Part shown: in pieces, positions 24,001 through 33,000 of the stretch | How the letters are laid out: each line of letters opens with the position of its first letter | How positions within the stretch are numbered: position 1 is the stretch's first letter | Assembly: GCA_965203055.1 (NCBI GenBank) | Contig: OZ241863.1 | Span: 448,001 to 512,000 of the forward strand | Direction: 5' to 3' | DNA length: 64,000 nt | Source: Spirochaetia bacterium | Lineage (GTDB): Bacteria; Spirochaetota; Spirochaetia; SZUA-6; Bin103 | Position numbers: made by a program

Positions 24001-27000
24001 TCTCCCTGCTGCAGGAGGAAGGCATCGCACGCCAGGCGCTCGACCGGGTTCGCGCACCGGTGGGGCTCGACATCGGCAGCGAGACGCCGGAGGAGATCGC
24101 CGTCAGCGTCGCCGCGCAGCTCCTGCGCGAACGGCACCGAGCACCCGCTCCGTCCCCTCCGCGACCGCGGCCGTGAGGACGGCCTCGTGACGGGTGTTAT
24201 TCGACTTCCATGATCTCGGGATCGAGCTGATACCAGAACACGGCTCCGGCATCGATGCTGTCGCCGATGCGGTCATCTCGCCGCATGCCTGACACCACGG
24301 CGTAGGCGTTCCGGCCCGTGAATCGGGTAAGGAAATCCGCGTTGCGGAGCGCCCGGGTCGTATCCCTTCCGTTGGCGGTGTAGGAGATCTCCACGGCGAC
24401 GTAGCAGGATTCGCCTGCCTCATCGGTCGCCTCCATGATCAGGTCGGCTCTTCGGAAGCTGCGCAGGTCGGCGCGGTCGATCGCGGTCGTGTCGGCGCGG
24501 TCGGTCAGCTCCCATAGATCATCGTGCGTCAGCGTCTTCGTGCGCCGCAAACCCAGGTCCCGAGCGATGGTGGAAGCCTCCGCGACCGCCGCATTTCTGG
24601 CATGGGCGCCTTTGAGGACGCCCAGGTCGTCCATCATCCTGTCGGTCTTGGTCTCCAGACGATCGAAGCGACGATCGGTAGCGGCGATGAAGCTATGCAC
24701 TTCCTCGCGGAGTGCAACCTGTTGTTCGGCCAACTCGGAGAGCCGCTCGCCCAACGCCGAGAGCCGTTCGGTCAACGCCGAGACCTGTTCGGCCAACGCC
24801 GAGACCCGCTCGGTCAACGCCGAGACCCGTTCGGCCAACTCCGAGACCCGCGCCGGCAGCTCGAGCAGTTCACGCGTGAGTATCCGGGATCGGAGGGCTT
24901 CCAGCCACTGCGGATGCCGGTCCAGCAGTGCGATCAGGTCTTCTATCGTATCGACGGCGTTCGTCGCGGGCATCTTGGCAAACAACTCCGGGGCGGTCGT
25001 CACGACCACCATAGCAGGTTCCGACCGTAAGCGCCAATCTGCAGCAGGTGTTGGGGAGCCGTAGCGGCGCCCGCTGGTGCGGTCCACGTAGCGGCCGCGG
25101 TCGCGCCGCCGCACCTCGCGCTTGACCGCCGCCGGGATAGCGCGGCCGGTCACGCCTGTCTTCGGCGCCGAAGTGGCGTCGGTCGCCGGCTTCGCTGCCG
25201 AAGTGACCGGGCGGTCAGCGGCTTCGTCTCCCGGCTGCGCCGGCGCCTGAGCCGATACCTTCGCCGCCGAAGGAGCGGCGCTGTCCGCGCCGGCCTCCTG
25301 CTTCGCTGCCGAGGCAGCGCCGCGAGCCGAGGCTGCCTGCGTCTTCGCCGCCGAAGTTTGCTCGGCGCCTTTGGCCGGCGCGGCGCGCCGCCCGGGCCGG
25401 ATCGTGGCGGTCGAGCCCTTCCCGCACCAGCCGCCCCATGAACTGCCCCAACGTCAGGTGCGGGTCAACGTGGGACAGGAGGCCCTTGAGCCGCTCCAAG
25501 CCCCGCCGGTACTCATCGTCGATCACCGCCTTGAGTTCCCAGCGCCCGCCGCCCAGCGGCCGCACCCGATCCGCCGGCGCCGCCAGCTCCGGGTCCACCT
25601 CGGCCAGCACTGCATCACCTGCCGGCTGCTCTTGCCGGACGCCTGCTCCACCAAGTCCCGCCGCGCCTCCGAGTTCAGCACCGGCGCCGGCACCGGCTTC
25701 CGCTCCGCCGGCTTCCGCTCTGCCGAACGCGGCGGCGCCGAGCCCTCCTGCGACTGAGCGGCAGCCCCGCACCCGGCCCCGCGCGGCGCGCTACGCGCCG
25801 CGCGTTCCTTCTTGCGCTCCTGCCGGTCGAACGCATGCTGCAACTGCGCGGCCGCTTTCAGCGTCATCGTGCCATTCTGCAGTATAATCATGGAAACTAC
25901 TTGAGTCGCCGGCGCGGGCGGCGTTGAGGGCAAGCAGGCGGGCGAGCACTTCGTCGCGGACTTCGTCGGGCCAACGCCAGCGGTAGTGAGGTGGTCCCGG
26001 TTGGTTAGACAGTCCGAGGGGTAGGTTAAGGTGTATCCGTCCTCAAGTTGAGGCGTTACCTGCTGAACCGCTCGGTAGACGCCGCTTCTCAGGGGTAGTA
26101 TGCTCGGTCTGCGGGTCCGTTGGGTCCTAACTCTTGTTCGGGAGGAATGAGTCGTATGTCACAACACGTCGTTTCACGAGATGGCAAGTGGGCGGTGCGC
26201 AGGGGCGGTGCCGATCGCGTTACGCGACGTTTCGACACGCAACGTGAAGCCATCGACGCTGCACGTGAGCTTGCCCGTAAGCAGAAAACCATATTGTACA
26301 TCCATGGAGAGGATGGCAGAATTATAAAGCGAGACTCTTATGGGGAGGACCCATTTCCACCGAAAGGGTAATCACAGCGCCGGTTGACCCCAACTTTGAT
26401 CGAAACGTATTCCTGAACGAAGTGATGCTGGCGAATCACGGGTGGAGAAGATCATTCAACTTATTGAGTCATCCCGTTACTCGATTCACGACCTGAGCAG
26501 ATGCCAAGCCCGCGCGGCGCGGGAACACTACCGGCTCAACATGCCCTTTGAGCTTGGATTGGACTTCGGATGCCGACGTTATGGGGGCGAACCTCTTTCG
26601 GGGAAGGTCATTCTGATACTCGAGGAAAAGCCCTATCGCTATCAGGCGGCAATTTCCGACTTGGCAGGAAATGATATTGAAGCGCATGGCGGCGATCCGG
26701 AAACTGCCGTAAGGAAGGTCAGAAACTGGATTGACGGGCTCGGTGACTTCGAACTTATCGGACCTCATCGCATATTTTCAGAATATGAGGACTTCTATGA
26801 GTGGTACTACGAACGCCAACTGGAGGCCGGCTTTTCCGAACGTGACATCCAAGACTATTCCACCCCGAAACTCTTGAAGGAAATGCGCCATTGGACCGAA
26901 AAAGATAGGCCGCGATAAGCATTCAGCGCCGCCGGAAGGAGTTCCCCGCTACCCAGGCTGGACGAAAGCTCCCGGTAAGCATCCGGCGGCCTAATCGGCC

Positions 27001-30000: not shown

Positions 30001-33000
30001 AGGTCACGGTTGGGACAGAGGTGTAGCCGCTCCCAGGGTTCGTGATCGTTACCTCCGCTACGCCGCTTTGCAGCACCGCGGTGCCGGTTGCCGTCTGGGA
30101 GTTGAGGCCCGATGCTGCGCCGAAGGTCACGGTCGGGGCAGAGGTGTAGCCGCTTCCGGGGTTCGTGATCGTCACTTCCAGTATTCTTCTGGCCCATACA
30201 TACGCGGTGGCGACGGCGCCGCTGCCCCCTCCTCCCGAAAACGTAACGGTCGGGCGGGAGGTGTAGCCGCTCCCCCGGTTCGTTATGGTTACGCTGAGCA
30301 CACCACCGCCCTGTATCGTCGCGGTTCCGGTTGCCTGCGTGCCACCGGCCTGCTGCGGAGCGCCAAAGGTCACGGTTGGGGCGGACGTGTAACCGCTCCC
30401 CGCGTTCGTAACGAGCACGGTAAATAGTTCGGGCCGGCGCGTTGCGGTGCCGGTCGCGGTGGTGCCGCCGGACGGCGGAGCGCTGAACGTCACGGTCGGG
30501 TCACCATTTGGATAGTTCCCGTTGATCACCATCGTCACTGACGTTACGCCGCTTTGCAGCACCGCGGTGCCGGTTGCCGTGGTGCCGCCGGACGGCGGCG
30601 CTCCAAACGTGACGCTGGGAACCGACGTGTAGCCGCTCCCGGCGGTCCCGACCGTCACCGAATCGACGTACCTGGGCCCAACGACGGTGCCGGTTGCCGT
30701 GGCGCCGCCGGCCGGCGCCGCTCCGAACGTCACGGTGGGAACCGACGCATAGCCGCTTCCTGCAGTTCCCACCGTCACCGAATCGACGGTACCGGAGCCC
30801 ACCGCGGCGCCGGTTGCCGTAGTGCCGCCGGCCGTCGGCGTCCCGAACGTCACGGTGGGAACCGACGCGTAGCCGTTCCCGGCGGTCCCGACCGTCACGG
30901 AATCGACGGAGCCCGCCGCGGCGCCGGTTGCCGTGGTGCCGCCGGCCGTCGGCGCCCCGAACGTGACGCTGGGAACCGACGCATAGCCGCTTCCCGGGTT
31001 CGCTATCGTGACCGACTCGACCGTGTCGGAGGCGCCCGACTGATCCGGGGCGGTGAGCACCAGCGCCACCGCGCCCGCCCGCACCTCGGCGGCAACCGTC
31101 CACTCCGCGCCGGAGAGATCGGACGCGAAGACCGGCTTGGCGCTCGTGCTGGTGAACGGCAGCTCGTGCCCGCCAATCGAAACGCGCACGGCGCCGCCGG
31201 TGAGCCGCTCCCACGCATACGGCGCGGAACGGCTGGACACGGCGCCCGTCAGGTTCGGTTCATCATCGCCAAAGTCAGCCGCGTTGATCGTCCAGCGCTT
31301 CTCCGCCGGCGCTGCCGGCTGCGGAGTTGGCGCGGGCTCGGTCGGCGGTTTACCCCCCCCCCTTGGGCCGGGTCGGCGGGCGCAACGGCCGGGCGCGCCG
31401 CCTGGGAACAGGCCATCAGCGCGGCGATGCCGGCGGCCAGCAACAGCAATAACGGCGATACCTTACTCACGTTCCCTCCGGTGGCGTGTCCGCCCGTCGG
31501 TCATGGTAGCACGCGCCCCCCAAGCTGACCACCCGTCCCCGCGCGGGCGTGGGCGGGCGCGCCGCTCCGGTGGTCGCCTGCGGGTCGATCGGCTATCATG
31601 CGAGGCGAGATGAGCGAGTTCCCGGAGCGGATGGCCGGTCAGCGCGATCCCGGCGTCCCTGCGCAGACCCCGCGCGAGCGCTGCCGGCCCTGACCGGCCA
31701 TGCAGCCGCGCACGCGCTTCATCCTCAACGACCGCGAGGTTGAGACCGCGGCCCCGGCCGGGCTGCTGCTGCTCGACTACCTGCGCGCCGGCGCGCGCCT
31801 GACCGGCACCAAGGAGGGCTGCAAGGAGGGCGACTGCGGCGCCTGCGCGGTCCTGATCGGGGAGCTTCAGGGCGGCGCCGTCCGCTACCAGCCGGTCACC
31901 TCCTGTCTGGTGCCGCTGGCCGAGGCGCACGGCGCGCACGTGGTGACCATCGAAGGGTGCAATCCGGCGGTCGGGCTCGACCCCGTGCAGCGCGCGGTGG
32001 TCGAGCACGGCGGTACCCAGTGCGGGTTCTGCACCCCCGGCATCGTGGTGTCGCTGCACGGGCTGCTGCTCGACCGGGACAAGGGACTCTCGATCGACGA
32101 CGTCAAGTACGCCCTGAGCGGCCACCTGTGCCGCTGCACCGGGTACCGCTCGCTCAAGGACTGCGCCGCCACGCTGGAACGGGAGCTGGGCGGCCGGCTC
32201 GACGCGCGCGGCAGCGATCGGGTGGCGGCGCTGGCGGCCGCCGGAGCGATTCCCGATTACTTCACGACGATCCCGGAACGGTTGCGGGCGCTCCGGGAGG
32301 AAGAGCCGGCCGGCAGCGGCGCCGCCTCCGGCCCGGCGCCGGAGGTGCGCATCGCCGGCGGCACCGACCTGTACGTGCAGCGGGGCGAGGAGATCCCGGA
32401 CCGCCGCGTCGAGGTGTTGGGCCGGCGCCGGGAGCTGAAGGGCATCCGCCGCGCCGGCGGCGAGTTTCGCGCCGGCGCCTTCACCACCTTCGAGGAGTTC
32501 GGCGCCCACCCGGCGGTGAACGCCGCGATTCCCCGCATCGCGGCGTTCAATCACCTGATCGCCTCCTGGCAGATCCGCAACCGCGCCACCCTGGCGGGCA
32601 ACATCGTCAACGCCTCGCCGATCGGCGACTTCACCGCCCTGCTGCTGGCGTTGGACGCCAGCATCGTCCTGGCCGGCGGCGGCGGCCGGCGCTCGGTACC
32701 GCTCAAGGAGTTCTACCGCGGCTACAAGCAGCTCGACCTGCGGCCCGGCGAGCTGCTCACCGAGGTGAGGTTCCCCGATCCGGCCGGCGCGCGGGTCAAC
32801 TTCGAGAAGGTCTCCAAGCGCACCTGCCTCGACATCGCCTCGGTCAACGCCGCCTGCTCGATCCGCTGCGCCGGGGACGGCGACACCATCGCCGAAGCGC
32901 ACTTCAGCCTGGGCGGCGTGGCGCCGGTGCCGCTCTACCTGCGCGCGGCCTCGCAGGCGGTGCGCGGCCGCGCCCTCGACCCGGACACGGCGCGGGAGGC

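Follow-up and report, generated by a model that had tools for sequence, protein, structure and literature searches.

Homopolymeric G tracts at a fixed coding site as candidate frame switches of a repeat-bearing lipoprotein family in a sponge-associated Spirochaetia bacterium

The window, that is the whole 64-kb stretch of DNA that was analysed, contains a tandem pair of paralogs, both encoded on the minus strand. Each consists of a lipobox signal-peptide segment and a 613-codon repeat body, and a G10 tract between them puts the two parts in different frames, as read from the DNA. In gene 2, the signal-peptide segment (31363..31470) has a GTG start after a GGAGG Shine-Dalgarno sequence, a hydrophobic core and the lipobox L-M-A-C. 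The lipobox Cys codon is at 31408-31410 and is separated by 15 linker codons (45 nt) from the out-of-frame tract at 31353..31362 (G10 in coding orientation, which is C10 on the plus strand). The body (29510..31352) comprises a Pro/Thr linker, a conserved base domain, approximately 12 repeats of 40 aa with a 120-nt period, and a conserved C-terminal helix and strand. In gene 1, the signal-peptide segment (28844..28954) has a probable GTG start after GGAGGA and the lipobox LMAC. It is followed by an out-of-frame G10 tract on the coding strand (28834..28843) and a body (26991..28833) whose protein is 87% identical to that of gene 2. The block holding gene 1 (26965-29005) is a duplicate of 29484-31513 with 90.3% nucleotide identity. 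The charged n-region is M-S-K in both window genes, and at G10 their signal-peptide frame terminates after 73 or 88 codons. Between the genes lies a minus-strand ORF of 110 aa (28993..29325) with one membrane helix and a coiled coil, for which no family above threshold was found in Pfam or NCBIfam.

The search of the body against Pfam and NCBIfam at E <= 1 gave a single row at chance level, in agreement with the preliminary description, which had assigned no family to it. An AlphaFold2 model of the body reached a pLDDT of 73.5 and a pTM of 0.43. Foldseek against PDB gave nothing at E <= 1e-3, and ESM Atlas returned just unnamed clusters (0.88). The likeness to small phage tail/neck domains in VIA-align, with a best Z of 7.0, is inside the noise range stated for the tool, and no fold was assigned.

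The tblastn search with both window bodies gave 37 merged intervals in the genome: 33 of at least 807 nt, one of which holds two genes, and four fragments of at most 153 nt. The large paralog family reported earlier is thus found again, with ~34 genes by this search instead of 35. Poly-G on the coding strand is observed at 11 family loci, 101-128 nt before the start of homology. Poly-C on the coding strand is observed at 11 others, 276-438 nt before it. The poly-G site is fixed between lipobox and body in all 11 poly-G loci. All 11 also show, by pattern reading and not by a predictor, the lipobox L-M-A-C or L-L-A-C after a charged n-region and a hydrophobic core. Tract-less paralogs carry GGGGA or GGGAA at the tract codon and have continuous lipobox ORFs, as seen at two loci of the related genome G011 (OZ241907.1). 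Of the 14 tract-less family intervals in this genome, at least 8 contain an in-frame lipobox.

The frame states of the poly-G class are four ON and seven OFF. Those of the ten poly-G genes listed earlier all match this reading, but the list was short by one locus, at contig position 2415579 (G8, in frame). Where the tract is G8, G11 or G14, natural paralogs sharing the context CAA-Gn-TAA form a single read-through ORF; G10, G12 and G16 are out of frame. Four of the OFF loci are all G10, one base short of the in-frame G11. One in-frame locus, at contig position 2467625, has lost its start-codon region. The genome encodes Lgt (PF01790, LGT, E = 1e-63) and LspA (PF01252, E = 1.8e-31). Together with the lipobox, their presence suggests that the family products are lipidated and may be exposed on the surface.

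Long G/C runs are far more frequent than expected in this genome of 4,557,819 bp with 68.75% GC. With each base added, up to 8 nt, the number of runs falls to 0.21, 0.17, 0.11 and 0.10 of the preceding count, and extrapolation of this decay predicts 0.12 runs of at least 10 nt. There are 37, an excess of ~300-fold, and the longest run in the whole genome is 26 nt. The recount (84 runs of exactly 7 nt plus 49 of at least 8 nt, and 37 of at least 10 nt) agrees with the totals of 133, 49 and 37 given before. The 5' windows searched for the family represent 0.97% of the genome and should hold 0.48 of the 49 runs; they hold 22 (binomial P = 2e-31). The concentration at family 5' ends is therefore upheld, with one run more than the 21 counted previously. 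The long tracts sit at the 5' ends of genes for exported proteins and are not randomly placed.

The comparison with G011, a related closed Spirochaetia genome, covered 16 orthologous tract pairs. The tracts of G011 are at orthologous sites, but no pair is of equal length (0/16) and the differences range from 2 to 11 nt. The lengths in this genome and G011 are 10/18, 10/15, 10/18, 10/18, 11/22, 16/20, 10/12, 12/21, 21/18, 14/20, 20/18, 15/23, 16/23, 18/16, 17/21 and 18/15. Flanks are up to 99-100% identical, with 99.5% as the highest value; in five pairs the alignment is limited to the gene-side flank, the opposite one sharing ~70%. By comparison, 13 of 19 short G/C control runs (4-6 nt) within these flanks are of unchanged length. 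The gene 2 tract is G10 here and G18 in G011; over 200 nt, its two flanks share 97.5% and 95.5% identity, and only 4 of 108 nt differ in the signal-peptide segment. These results support the hypermutability that the earlier proposal of switched tracts implies: position is kept between species while length has diverged. None of the seven poly-G genes of G011 is in frame. The more distant relatives G010 and G012 likewise differ in tract (G17 against G11; C24 against C10-T-C9) where the sequence context, adjoining lipoprotein genes, is conserved. Counts of G10 in 40 relatives, made with overlapping matches, are too high in fragmented assemblies such as G007 and G009, whose contigs end in poly-G, and are of qualitative use only.

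It is likely that these tracts are slipped-strand contingency loci, in which tract length sets the frame of lipoprotein genes; replication slippage as the cause, reversibility and a high switching rate are inferred. For the poly-G class, the phase-variable loci proposed in the preliminary description are supported by the frame logic read from the DNA, the in-frame G8, G11 and G14 paralogs and the length divergence from G011. In the precursor, the signal peptide with its lipobox Cys would be followed by a Gly/Pro/Thr tether, which leads to a small base domain and a rod built from ~12 beta-strand repeats, each 40 residues long. The G tract, 15 codons past the lipobox Cys, would be a hot spot of slippage in DNA replication. 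With lengths of 3k+2 (8, 11, 14 and so on), the complete lipoprotein would be made and would include a short poly-Gly stretch. Other lengths would give the signal peptide and an Arg-rich out-of-frame tail of ~50 residues, then termination. At G10, the two window genes are both read as OFF and need a single insertion to be ON. Among ~34 paralogs, 11 would have the poly-G switch and 11 a poly-C tract further upstream. With 22 tract-bearing paralogs, the expressed lipoproteins may be combined in many ways within a population, which could be bet-hedging against whatever recognises the cell envelope. The in-frame shares, 4/11 here and 0/7 in G011, are compatible with random phase, for which one third is expected, and equally with many permanently silent genes. 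The loss of mismatch repair was rejected as the cause of tract instability, as genes for MutS and MutL are present, like in Neisseria; that no repair defect speeds up slippage counts against the main explanation. Campylobacter is not known to carry MutS and MutL.

An alternative explanation is that the family is being lost and consists of decaying pseudogenes, in which long tracts are merely prone to frameshift and adaptive, reversible switching does not occur. Out-of-frame genes in seven of 11 cases here and in seven of seven in G011 fit this explanation, as do the in-frame locus without its start-codon region, the three poly-C loci without a canonical start between tract and lipobox, and the four short fragments. 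Genes OFF in both genomes are nevertheless conserved, with dN/dS against G011 of 0.53 for gene 2, 0.42 for gene 1 and 0.22 for the paralog at contig position 3067508. Taken separately, the base domain has a ratio of 0.24 and the repeat part one of 0.60, just moderately below 1. By these ratios the genes are under purifying selection. Signal-peptide segments of OFF genes are intact, including the start codon and the Shine-Dalgarno sequence, and no 613-codon body contains a stop codon. That both species and all 11 paralogs retain the tract at one codon although its length changes, the 300-fold excess of tracts, and their position at the 5' ends of exported-protein genes likewise speak against decay. 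We regard it as improbable.

The second alternative, to which we give the same small weight, is rescue at the RNA level. RNA polymerase slippage or ribosomal frameshifting would produce a fixed in-frame fraction, and the tract would be a dial of expression, not a heritable switch. Transcriptional slippage occurs on long A/T runs, and judged from these, 10-22 G would be long enough for it. Public contigs from X1, X11, X12 and X16, four runs of four different studies (contigs, not reads), were aligned to the window, and the modal length at gene 2 appears to be G10 throughout, which fits a stable allele with heterogeneous RNA. The reference length at 31353-31362 takes the majority of depth in X12 and X1, is the sole form in X11 and makes up about half in X16. 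Variants are +CC in X12 (65/1277) and X16 (180/378), +C in X16 (30/378) and -1 in X1 (24/421). Total depth there exceeds single-copy depth, so these variants possibly come from paralogs, with G11/G12 paralogs at 93% likeness as a possible source. At the gene 1 tract (28834-28843) no variant is listed in the contigs of the four runs, and contigs tend to break nearby. DNA of this spirochaete lineage is abundant in sponge metagenomes, with a single-copy depth of ~420 in run X12; a degenerate pattern spanning the tract gave 0 matches in JGI metagenomes. Against RNA-level rescue, in-frame and out-of-frame alleles coexist among paralogs, and the DNA length differs in all 16 orthologous pairs, indicating that the DNA itself is unstable. 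RNA-level rescue can act alongside DNA slippage.

It is least likely, and in our view very improbable, that, with the tracts themselves real, their lengths and hence the OFF calls are homopolymer miscalls, the window genes being truly intact at G11: the four OFF loci at G10, one below G11, and a single-contig metagenome assembly, from which long reads are probable, would fit, but the errors that long-read assemblies do make in homopolymers are not as large as 6-11 nt, the lengths differ between assemblies by up to 11 nt, and at gene 2 the reference length dominates X12 and X1 and is alone in X11, with minor +2, +1 and -1 forms beside it and +1 in one run only, so that G10 there is unlikely to be a miscall.

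For the poly-C class, 7 of the 11 tracts may belong to a longer ORF, close behind a start codon further upstream, rather than to a promoter. A promoter-spacer switch of the porA/tp0126 type, with the tract between -35 and -10 hexamers, was considered for this class. A sigma-70 consensus scan, which speaks neither for nor against it, found no promoter-like site in the vicinity of the single G011 poly-C locus scanned, nor in the DNA upstream of the two window genes. The idea of an anti-Shine-Dalgarno element, in which the C run pairs with the G-rich ribosome site, was rejected. The pairing was inconsistent in G011 leaders, and four of them fold worse than shuffles (z = +1.4 to +2.6).

The mechanism itself is already known, as the classic slipped-strand contingency locus; what stands out is its unusual setting and large scale. 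In Mycoplasma hominis, Vaa is ON with 8 A and OFF with 7 or 9, slippage occurs at 1e-3 to 1e-4, and size varies via repeat cassettes (PMC524362). A homopolymer near the 5' coding end of a repeat-bearing surface lipoprotein gene sets the frame in both cases. Vaa differs in its poly-A tract, its low-GC wall-less pathogen and its one gene per strain, against poly-G, a 69% GC spirochaete and ~34 paralogs here. In Treponema pallidum, in the same bacterial class, tracts of at least 8 G are linked to genes for outer-membrane or exported proteins (tprE/G/J, tprL, tp0126 and others), most of the 17 tested varying in length in vivo, and those studied are promoter elements: the tract of tp0126 is in the -35/-10 spacer, and that of tprL overlies the -10 (PMC7864442). 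G tracts at exported-protein genes are shared. In the organism described here, the tract of the window genes is inside the ORF, the lineage is sponge-associated and non-pathogenic, and the tracts are ~3-fold more numerous and reach 26 nt. Promoter tracts are also described there for Neisseria porA (poly-G) and opc (poly-C) (PMC7864442), and studies of Neisseria and Campylobacter report poly-G inside the ORFs of hmbR/hpuAB and a poly-G phasome of C. jejuni (PMC3786947, PMC6321876). Stochastic switching of frame or promoter by homopolymer slippage and many surface-related genes per genome are common features. Such bacteria are host-restricted vertebrate pathogens or commensals with tracts usually of 7-14 nt, whereas here one lipoprotein family takes 22 of 49 tracts.

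A further reading, tentative and rather doubtful, is that the sponge symbiont has a phasome of ~50 loci in which one lipoprotein family would provide 22 independent switches of two designs, poly-G as poly-Gly in the tether and poly-C as poly-Pro directly after an upstream start. If true, the poly-Pro would be in the part of the precursor removed by signal peptidase II, so that nothing of the poly-C switch would be visible once the protein is mature.

Seven of the 11 poly-G-class genes appear to the gene caller only as a signal-less 'hypothetical protein', which is a warning for annotation. Among the matches listed in a literature search, no paper tied repeat-driven phase variation to symbionts of sponges. 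What is understood of phase variation by simple repeats comes almost wholly from vertebrate pathogens and commensals, and here it would occur at large scale in an uncultured high-GC sponge-associated Spirochaetia. The family offers a testable handle on envelope variation by a sponge symbiont, with phages and phagocytic cells of the host as possible selective agents. If the reading of a ~50-locus phasome is true, contingency loci would be no speciality of vertebrate pathogens but would be in general use among marine invertebrate symbionts, perhaps as a defence from phage or from phagocytosis by the host.

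The genome, a single contig of 4,557,819 bp with 68.75% GC, contains 49 G/C runs of at least 8 nt and 37 of at least 10 nt, exactly as in the preliminary description. The number of runs drops steadily with length up to 8 nt (22,420 of 4 nt, 4,745 of 5 nt, 783 of 6 nt, 84 of 7 nt and 8 of 8 nt), and then a second body of runs extends out to 26 nt. Extrapolation of the observed decay gives 0.12 expected runs of at least 10 nt. A tblastn search with the bodies of the two window genes as queries found 37 intervals of the lipobox repeat-protein family, 33 of which are at least 807 nt. 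The large paralog family reported earlier is thus recovered, at ~34 genes instead of 35. The zone from -300 to +900 nt of the interval 5' ends occupies 0.97% of the genome and contains 22 of the 49 runs, versus 0.48 expected (binomial P = 2e-31). The clustering at family starts was already described, with a count of 21.

On the minus strand of the window, two paralogous genes of identical layout are read from the DNA. Each starts with a short ORF preceded by a GGAGG ribosome site, and its product has a charged n-region, a hydrophobic core and a lipobox L-M-A-C. Fifteen codons past the lipobox is a G10 tract on the coding strand (C10 on the plus strand), at 28834-28843 in gene 1 and at 31353-31362 in gene 2. 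Downstream of the tract, the frame of the repeat body is shifted one base relative to the signal-peptide frame in both genes. As a result of this shift, the frame of the signal peptide is closed by a stop at 88 or 73 codons, and ORF finding detects just a signal-less body of 576 aa (minus strand, 26991-28721 for gene 1 and 29510-31240 for gene 2). Counted directly past the tract, 613 codons are open in the body frame. The N-terminal end of the body is a Pro/Thr-rich linker, whose sequence begins KPPTEPAPTPQPAAPAEKRW, and Tandem Repeats Finder detected a 120-nt period with ~12 units in each gene. The two proteins are 87% identical, and the duplicated block (26965-29005 versus 29484-31513) shows 90.3% nucleotide identity.

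Only one gene occupies this locus in G011, the closest family-bearing relative; by comparison, the genome studied here has an insertion of ~4.9 kb (window 24644-29510). It includes the gene 1 duplicate, a 110-aa membrane/coiled-coil ORF, a DUF2188 ORF (26120-26371), an unknown 158-aa ORF and a ~740-bp repeat (25158-25882). This repeat has 57 genomic copies, of which 40 are at least 600 bp long and 83-92% identical, and its ORFs have no Pfam match. Its contig depth in sponge runs is 20-50 times that of single-copy sequence. A copy is found within 3 kb of 10 of the 37 family intervals, versus 3.7 expected; 16 of 2000 circular shifts reached this number.

Profile searches assigned the family body to no Pfam or NCBIfam family, the same result as reported before. 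The repeat motif is widespread: of 8,000 database proteins scored, 6,198 reach E <= 1e-3. Many of these are ~1,000 aa long and come from other phyla, and the sole informative name among them is "beta strand repeat-containing protein". AlphaFold2, with an alignment of 21 sequences, gave an all-beta repeat model (pLDDT 73.5, pTM 0.43), and its comparison with solved structures gave no convincing match. For the gene 2 model (29510-31351, minus strand), the best structural alignments cover ~60 residues, spread over model residues 14-613, all with Z <= 7.0. Because such short alignments span this range, the small base domain seems, on weak grounds, to be made from both N- and C-terminal segments.

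The two window genes belong to the poly-G class, comprising 11 loci with G on the coding strand at a fixed site past the lipobox. The sequence around the tract is usually CCGGCCCAA-Gn-TAA(A/G)CCGCCGA. Frame arithmetic and direct translation place the body in frame with the signal peptide (ON) at four loci and out of frame (OFF) at seven. The in-frame loci are at contig positions 946262 (G11), 2415579 (G8), 2467625 (G14, with the start-codon region lost) and 2936319 (G12, in a context 1 nt shorter). Of the out-of-frame loci, four have G10 tracts, the two window genes among them, and the others have G12, G16 and G8. The earlier list of states is reproduced, and the G8 locus at 2415579 is added to it. 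In two G011 paralogs without a long tract (L062 and L066), the tract codon reads GGGGA or GGGAA, and the lipobox reads straight into the body. The tract thus amounts to a Gly codon that has expanded, within the tether behind the lipid anchor. An in-frame lipobox is also present in at least 8 of 14 tract-less intervals of the genome, and four of the remainder are fragments. Judged from these sequences, the fused signal-peptide-body form is the real gene. Lgt and LspA are encoded in the genome.

The poly-C class also comprises 11 loci, with C on the coding strand, 5' of the signal peptide. Behind the tract lies an AT-rich box (ATAGA, ATGAA or ATAAA), conserved like the leader that comes next. 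At seven loci, a Shine-Dalgarno-preceded start codon lies 8-31 nt 5' of the tract with no intervening stop, and no stop closes the frame between the tract and the lipobox either; the entry for one of them, 1846126, was corrected by hand. Some paralogs have GTG as the upstream start codon, and another has ATG. This start is in frame with the lipoprotein at four loci (C14, C17, C12 and C15) and out of frame at three (C10, C10 and C20), and it is the sole canonical start at two of the seven. Variable columns of the leader number 5, 6 and 10 of 18 at codon positions 1, 2 and 3. These upstream starts, open frames and variable columns raise the possibility that the poly-C tract, too, switches translation, with about equal chances for and against. 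It would then be translated as poly-Pro in an N-terminal extension that is cleaved off by signal peptidase II. That the tract acts in the promoter or leader, and not in translation, is similarly balanced. Internal starts are also present at five of the seven loci, two of them with a good ribosome site, which counts against the translational reading. Scanning one G011 poly-C locus with the sigma-70 consensus gave no promoter-like site, and four G011 leaders were less stably folded than their shuffles. The C10 tract at contig 915268-915277, in this class, lies within a 35-codon ORF ~190 nt 5' of the lipoprotein start. The G011 tracts sharing its flanks are C15 (L021, an orthologue with both flanks adjacent) and C7-T-C31 (L022, a paralogous site).

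The window DNA occurs in sponge and marine metagenome runs and in runs of three coded organisms, from six studies. Tract-length variants were taken from Logan contigs of four runs from four studies. For the gene 2 tract, contigs with +CC have a depth of 65/1277 in run X12 and 180/378 in X16, those with +C 30/378 in X16, and those with -1 24/421 in X1; no length variant is listed for the gene 1 tract in the contigs of these four runs. The total depth at the gene 2 tract exceeds the single-copy depth (about 420, 286 and 50), and there are similarly flanked G11/G12 paralogs, so the variants may originate from paralogs. They are no proof of switching. In X12 and X1, most of the depth belongs to the reference G10, and X11 has no other form, which argues against a simple assembly miscall.

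Tract lengths also differ between genomes. The family is present in 5 of the 41 related genomes searched; beyond those genomes, a method whose reach is limited to close relatives detected the conserved base domain in one further genome alone, a second Spirochaetia MAG (OZ251575.1). G011, a closed 4.14-Mb chromosome (OZ241907.1), has 42 G/C runs of at least 8 nt, the longest being 31 nt. All 42 sites were taken as 40 loci and paired through their flanks, yielding 16 orthologous pairs, 11 with both flanks adjacent and five with one conserved flank. None of the 16 has equal tract length, and the differences are 2-11 nt, well beyond assembly homopolymer error. The gene 2 tract is G10 here and G18 in G011, and over 200 nt its flanks are 97.5% and 95.5% identical. 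At contig 1278063, the tract measures 14 versus 20 nt between flanks that are both 99.5% identical. Among short control runs of G or C (4-6 nt) in the flanks of the paired tracts, 13 of 19 have the same length, in a small sample. Two further loci, compared between the relatives G010 and G012, have G17 versus G11 and C24 versus C10-T-C9. In the one-flank pairs (G011 loci L017, L025, L045, L048 and L020), the gene-side flank is conserved, and the upstream flank, ~70% alike, is effectively unalignable. Because conservation ends at the gene-side flank, the tract marks a rearrangement boundary in these 5 of 16 pairs.

That the out-of-frame genes are dead pseudogenes is disfavoured by dN/dS of 0.22-0.53 and by the intact signal-peptide segment. 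Gene 2 and its G011 orthologue, both out of frame, show dN/dS of 0.53 over 610 codons (0.24 in the base domain, 0.60 in the repeats). The value is 0.42 for gene 1 against the same orthologue and 0.22 for the paralog at contig 3067508. In the signal-peptide segment of gene 2, 4 of 108 nt are changed relative to G011, with the start codon and lipobox intact. This conservation fits part-time expression.

As reported earlier for further surface genes, several of the 27 runs outside the family are in or just 5' of exported-protein genes. The genes include four SBP_bac_5 (two with a G run within the signal peptide), one SBP_bac_1, a gene of ~6,000 codons with He_PIG domains, and those for an LRR/Calx-beta/fn3 protein, a Peptidase_M30 lipoprotein and a ComEC-like protein. 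The two signal-peptide runs, at contig 936440-936449 (G10) and 3747245-3747253 (G9), encode Gly-Gly-Gly and are both now in frame; they are candidates for further translational switches. Long G/C runs are also common in relatives for which the lipoprotein family had no match (G001, G003, G005, G027 and others); in G007 and G009, whose assemblies are fragmented, poly-G at the ends of contigs inflates the run counts. The tract habit seems wider than the lipoprotein family.

The tract-bearing lipoprotein family of the preliminary description is confirmed and its interpretation as phase-variable supported; mechanistically, the system corresponds to classical contingency loci. The closest analogue in design is Vaa of M. 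hominis, a repeat lipoprotein with a homopolymer within its 5' coding region, where 8 A is ON and 7 or 9 is OFF (PMC524362). The closest phylogenetically is T. pallidum, whose poly-G tracts vary in length in vivo and act in promoters (PMC7864442). Literature searches on sponge symbionts and phase variation gave nothing relevant among the papers listed. Novel features are the uncultured, sponge-associated Spirochaetia as host, the scale of the system, the length of the tracts (as much as 26 nt here and 31 nt in G011) and a family that lacks annotation.
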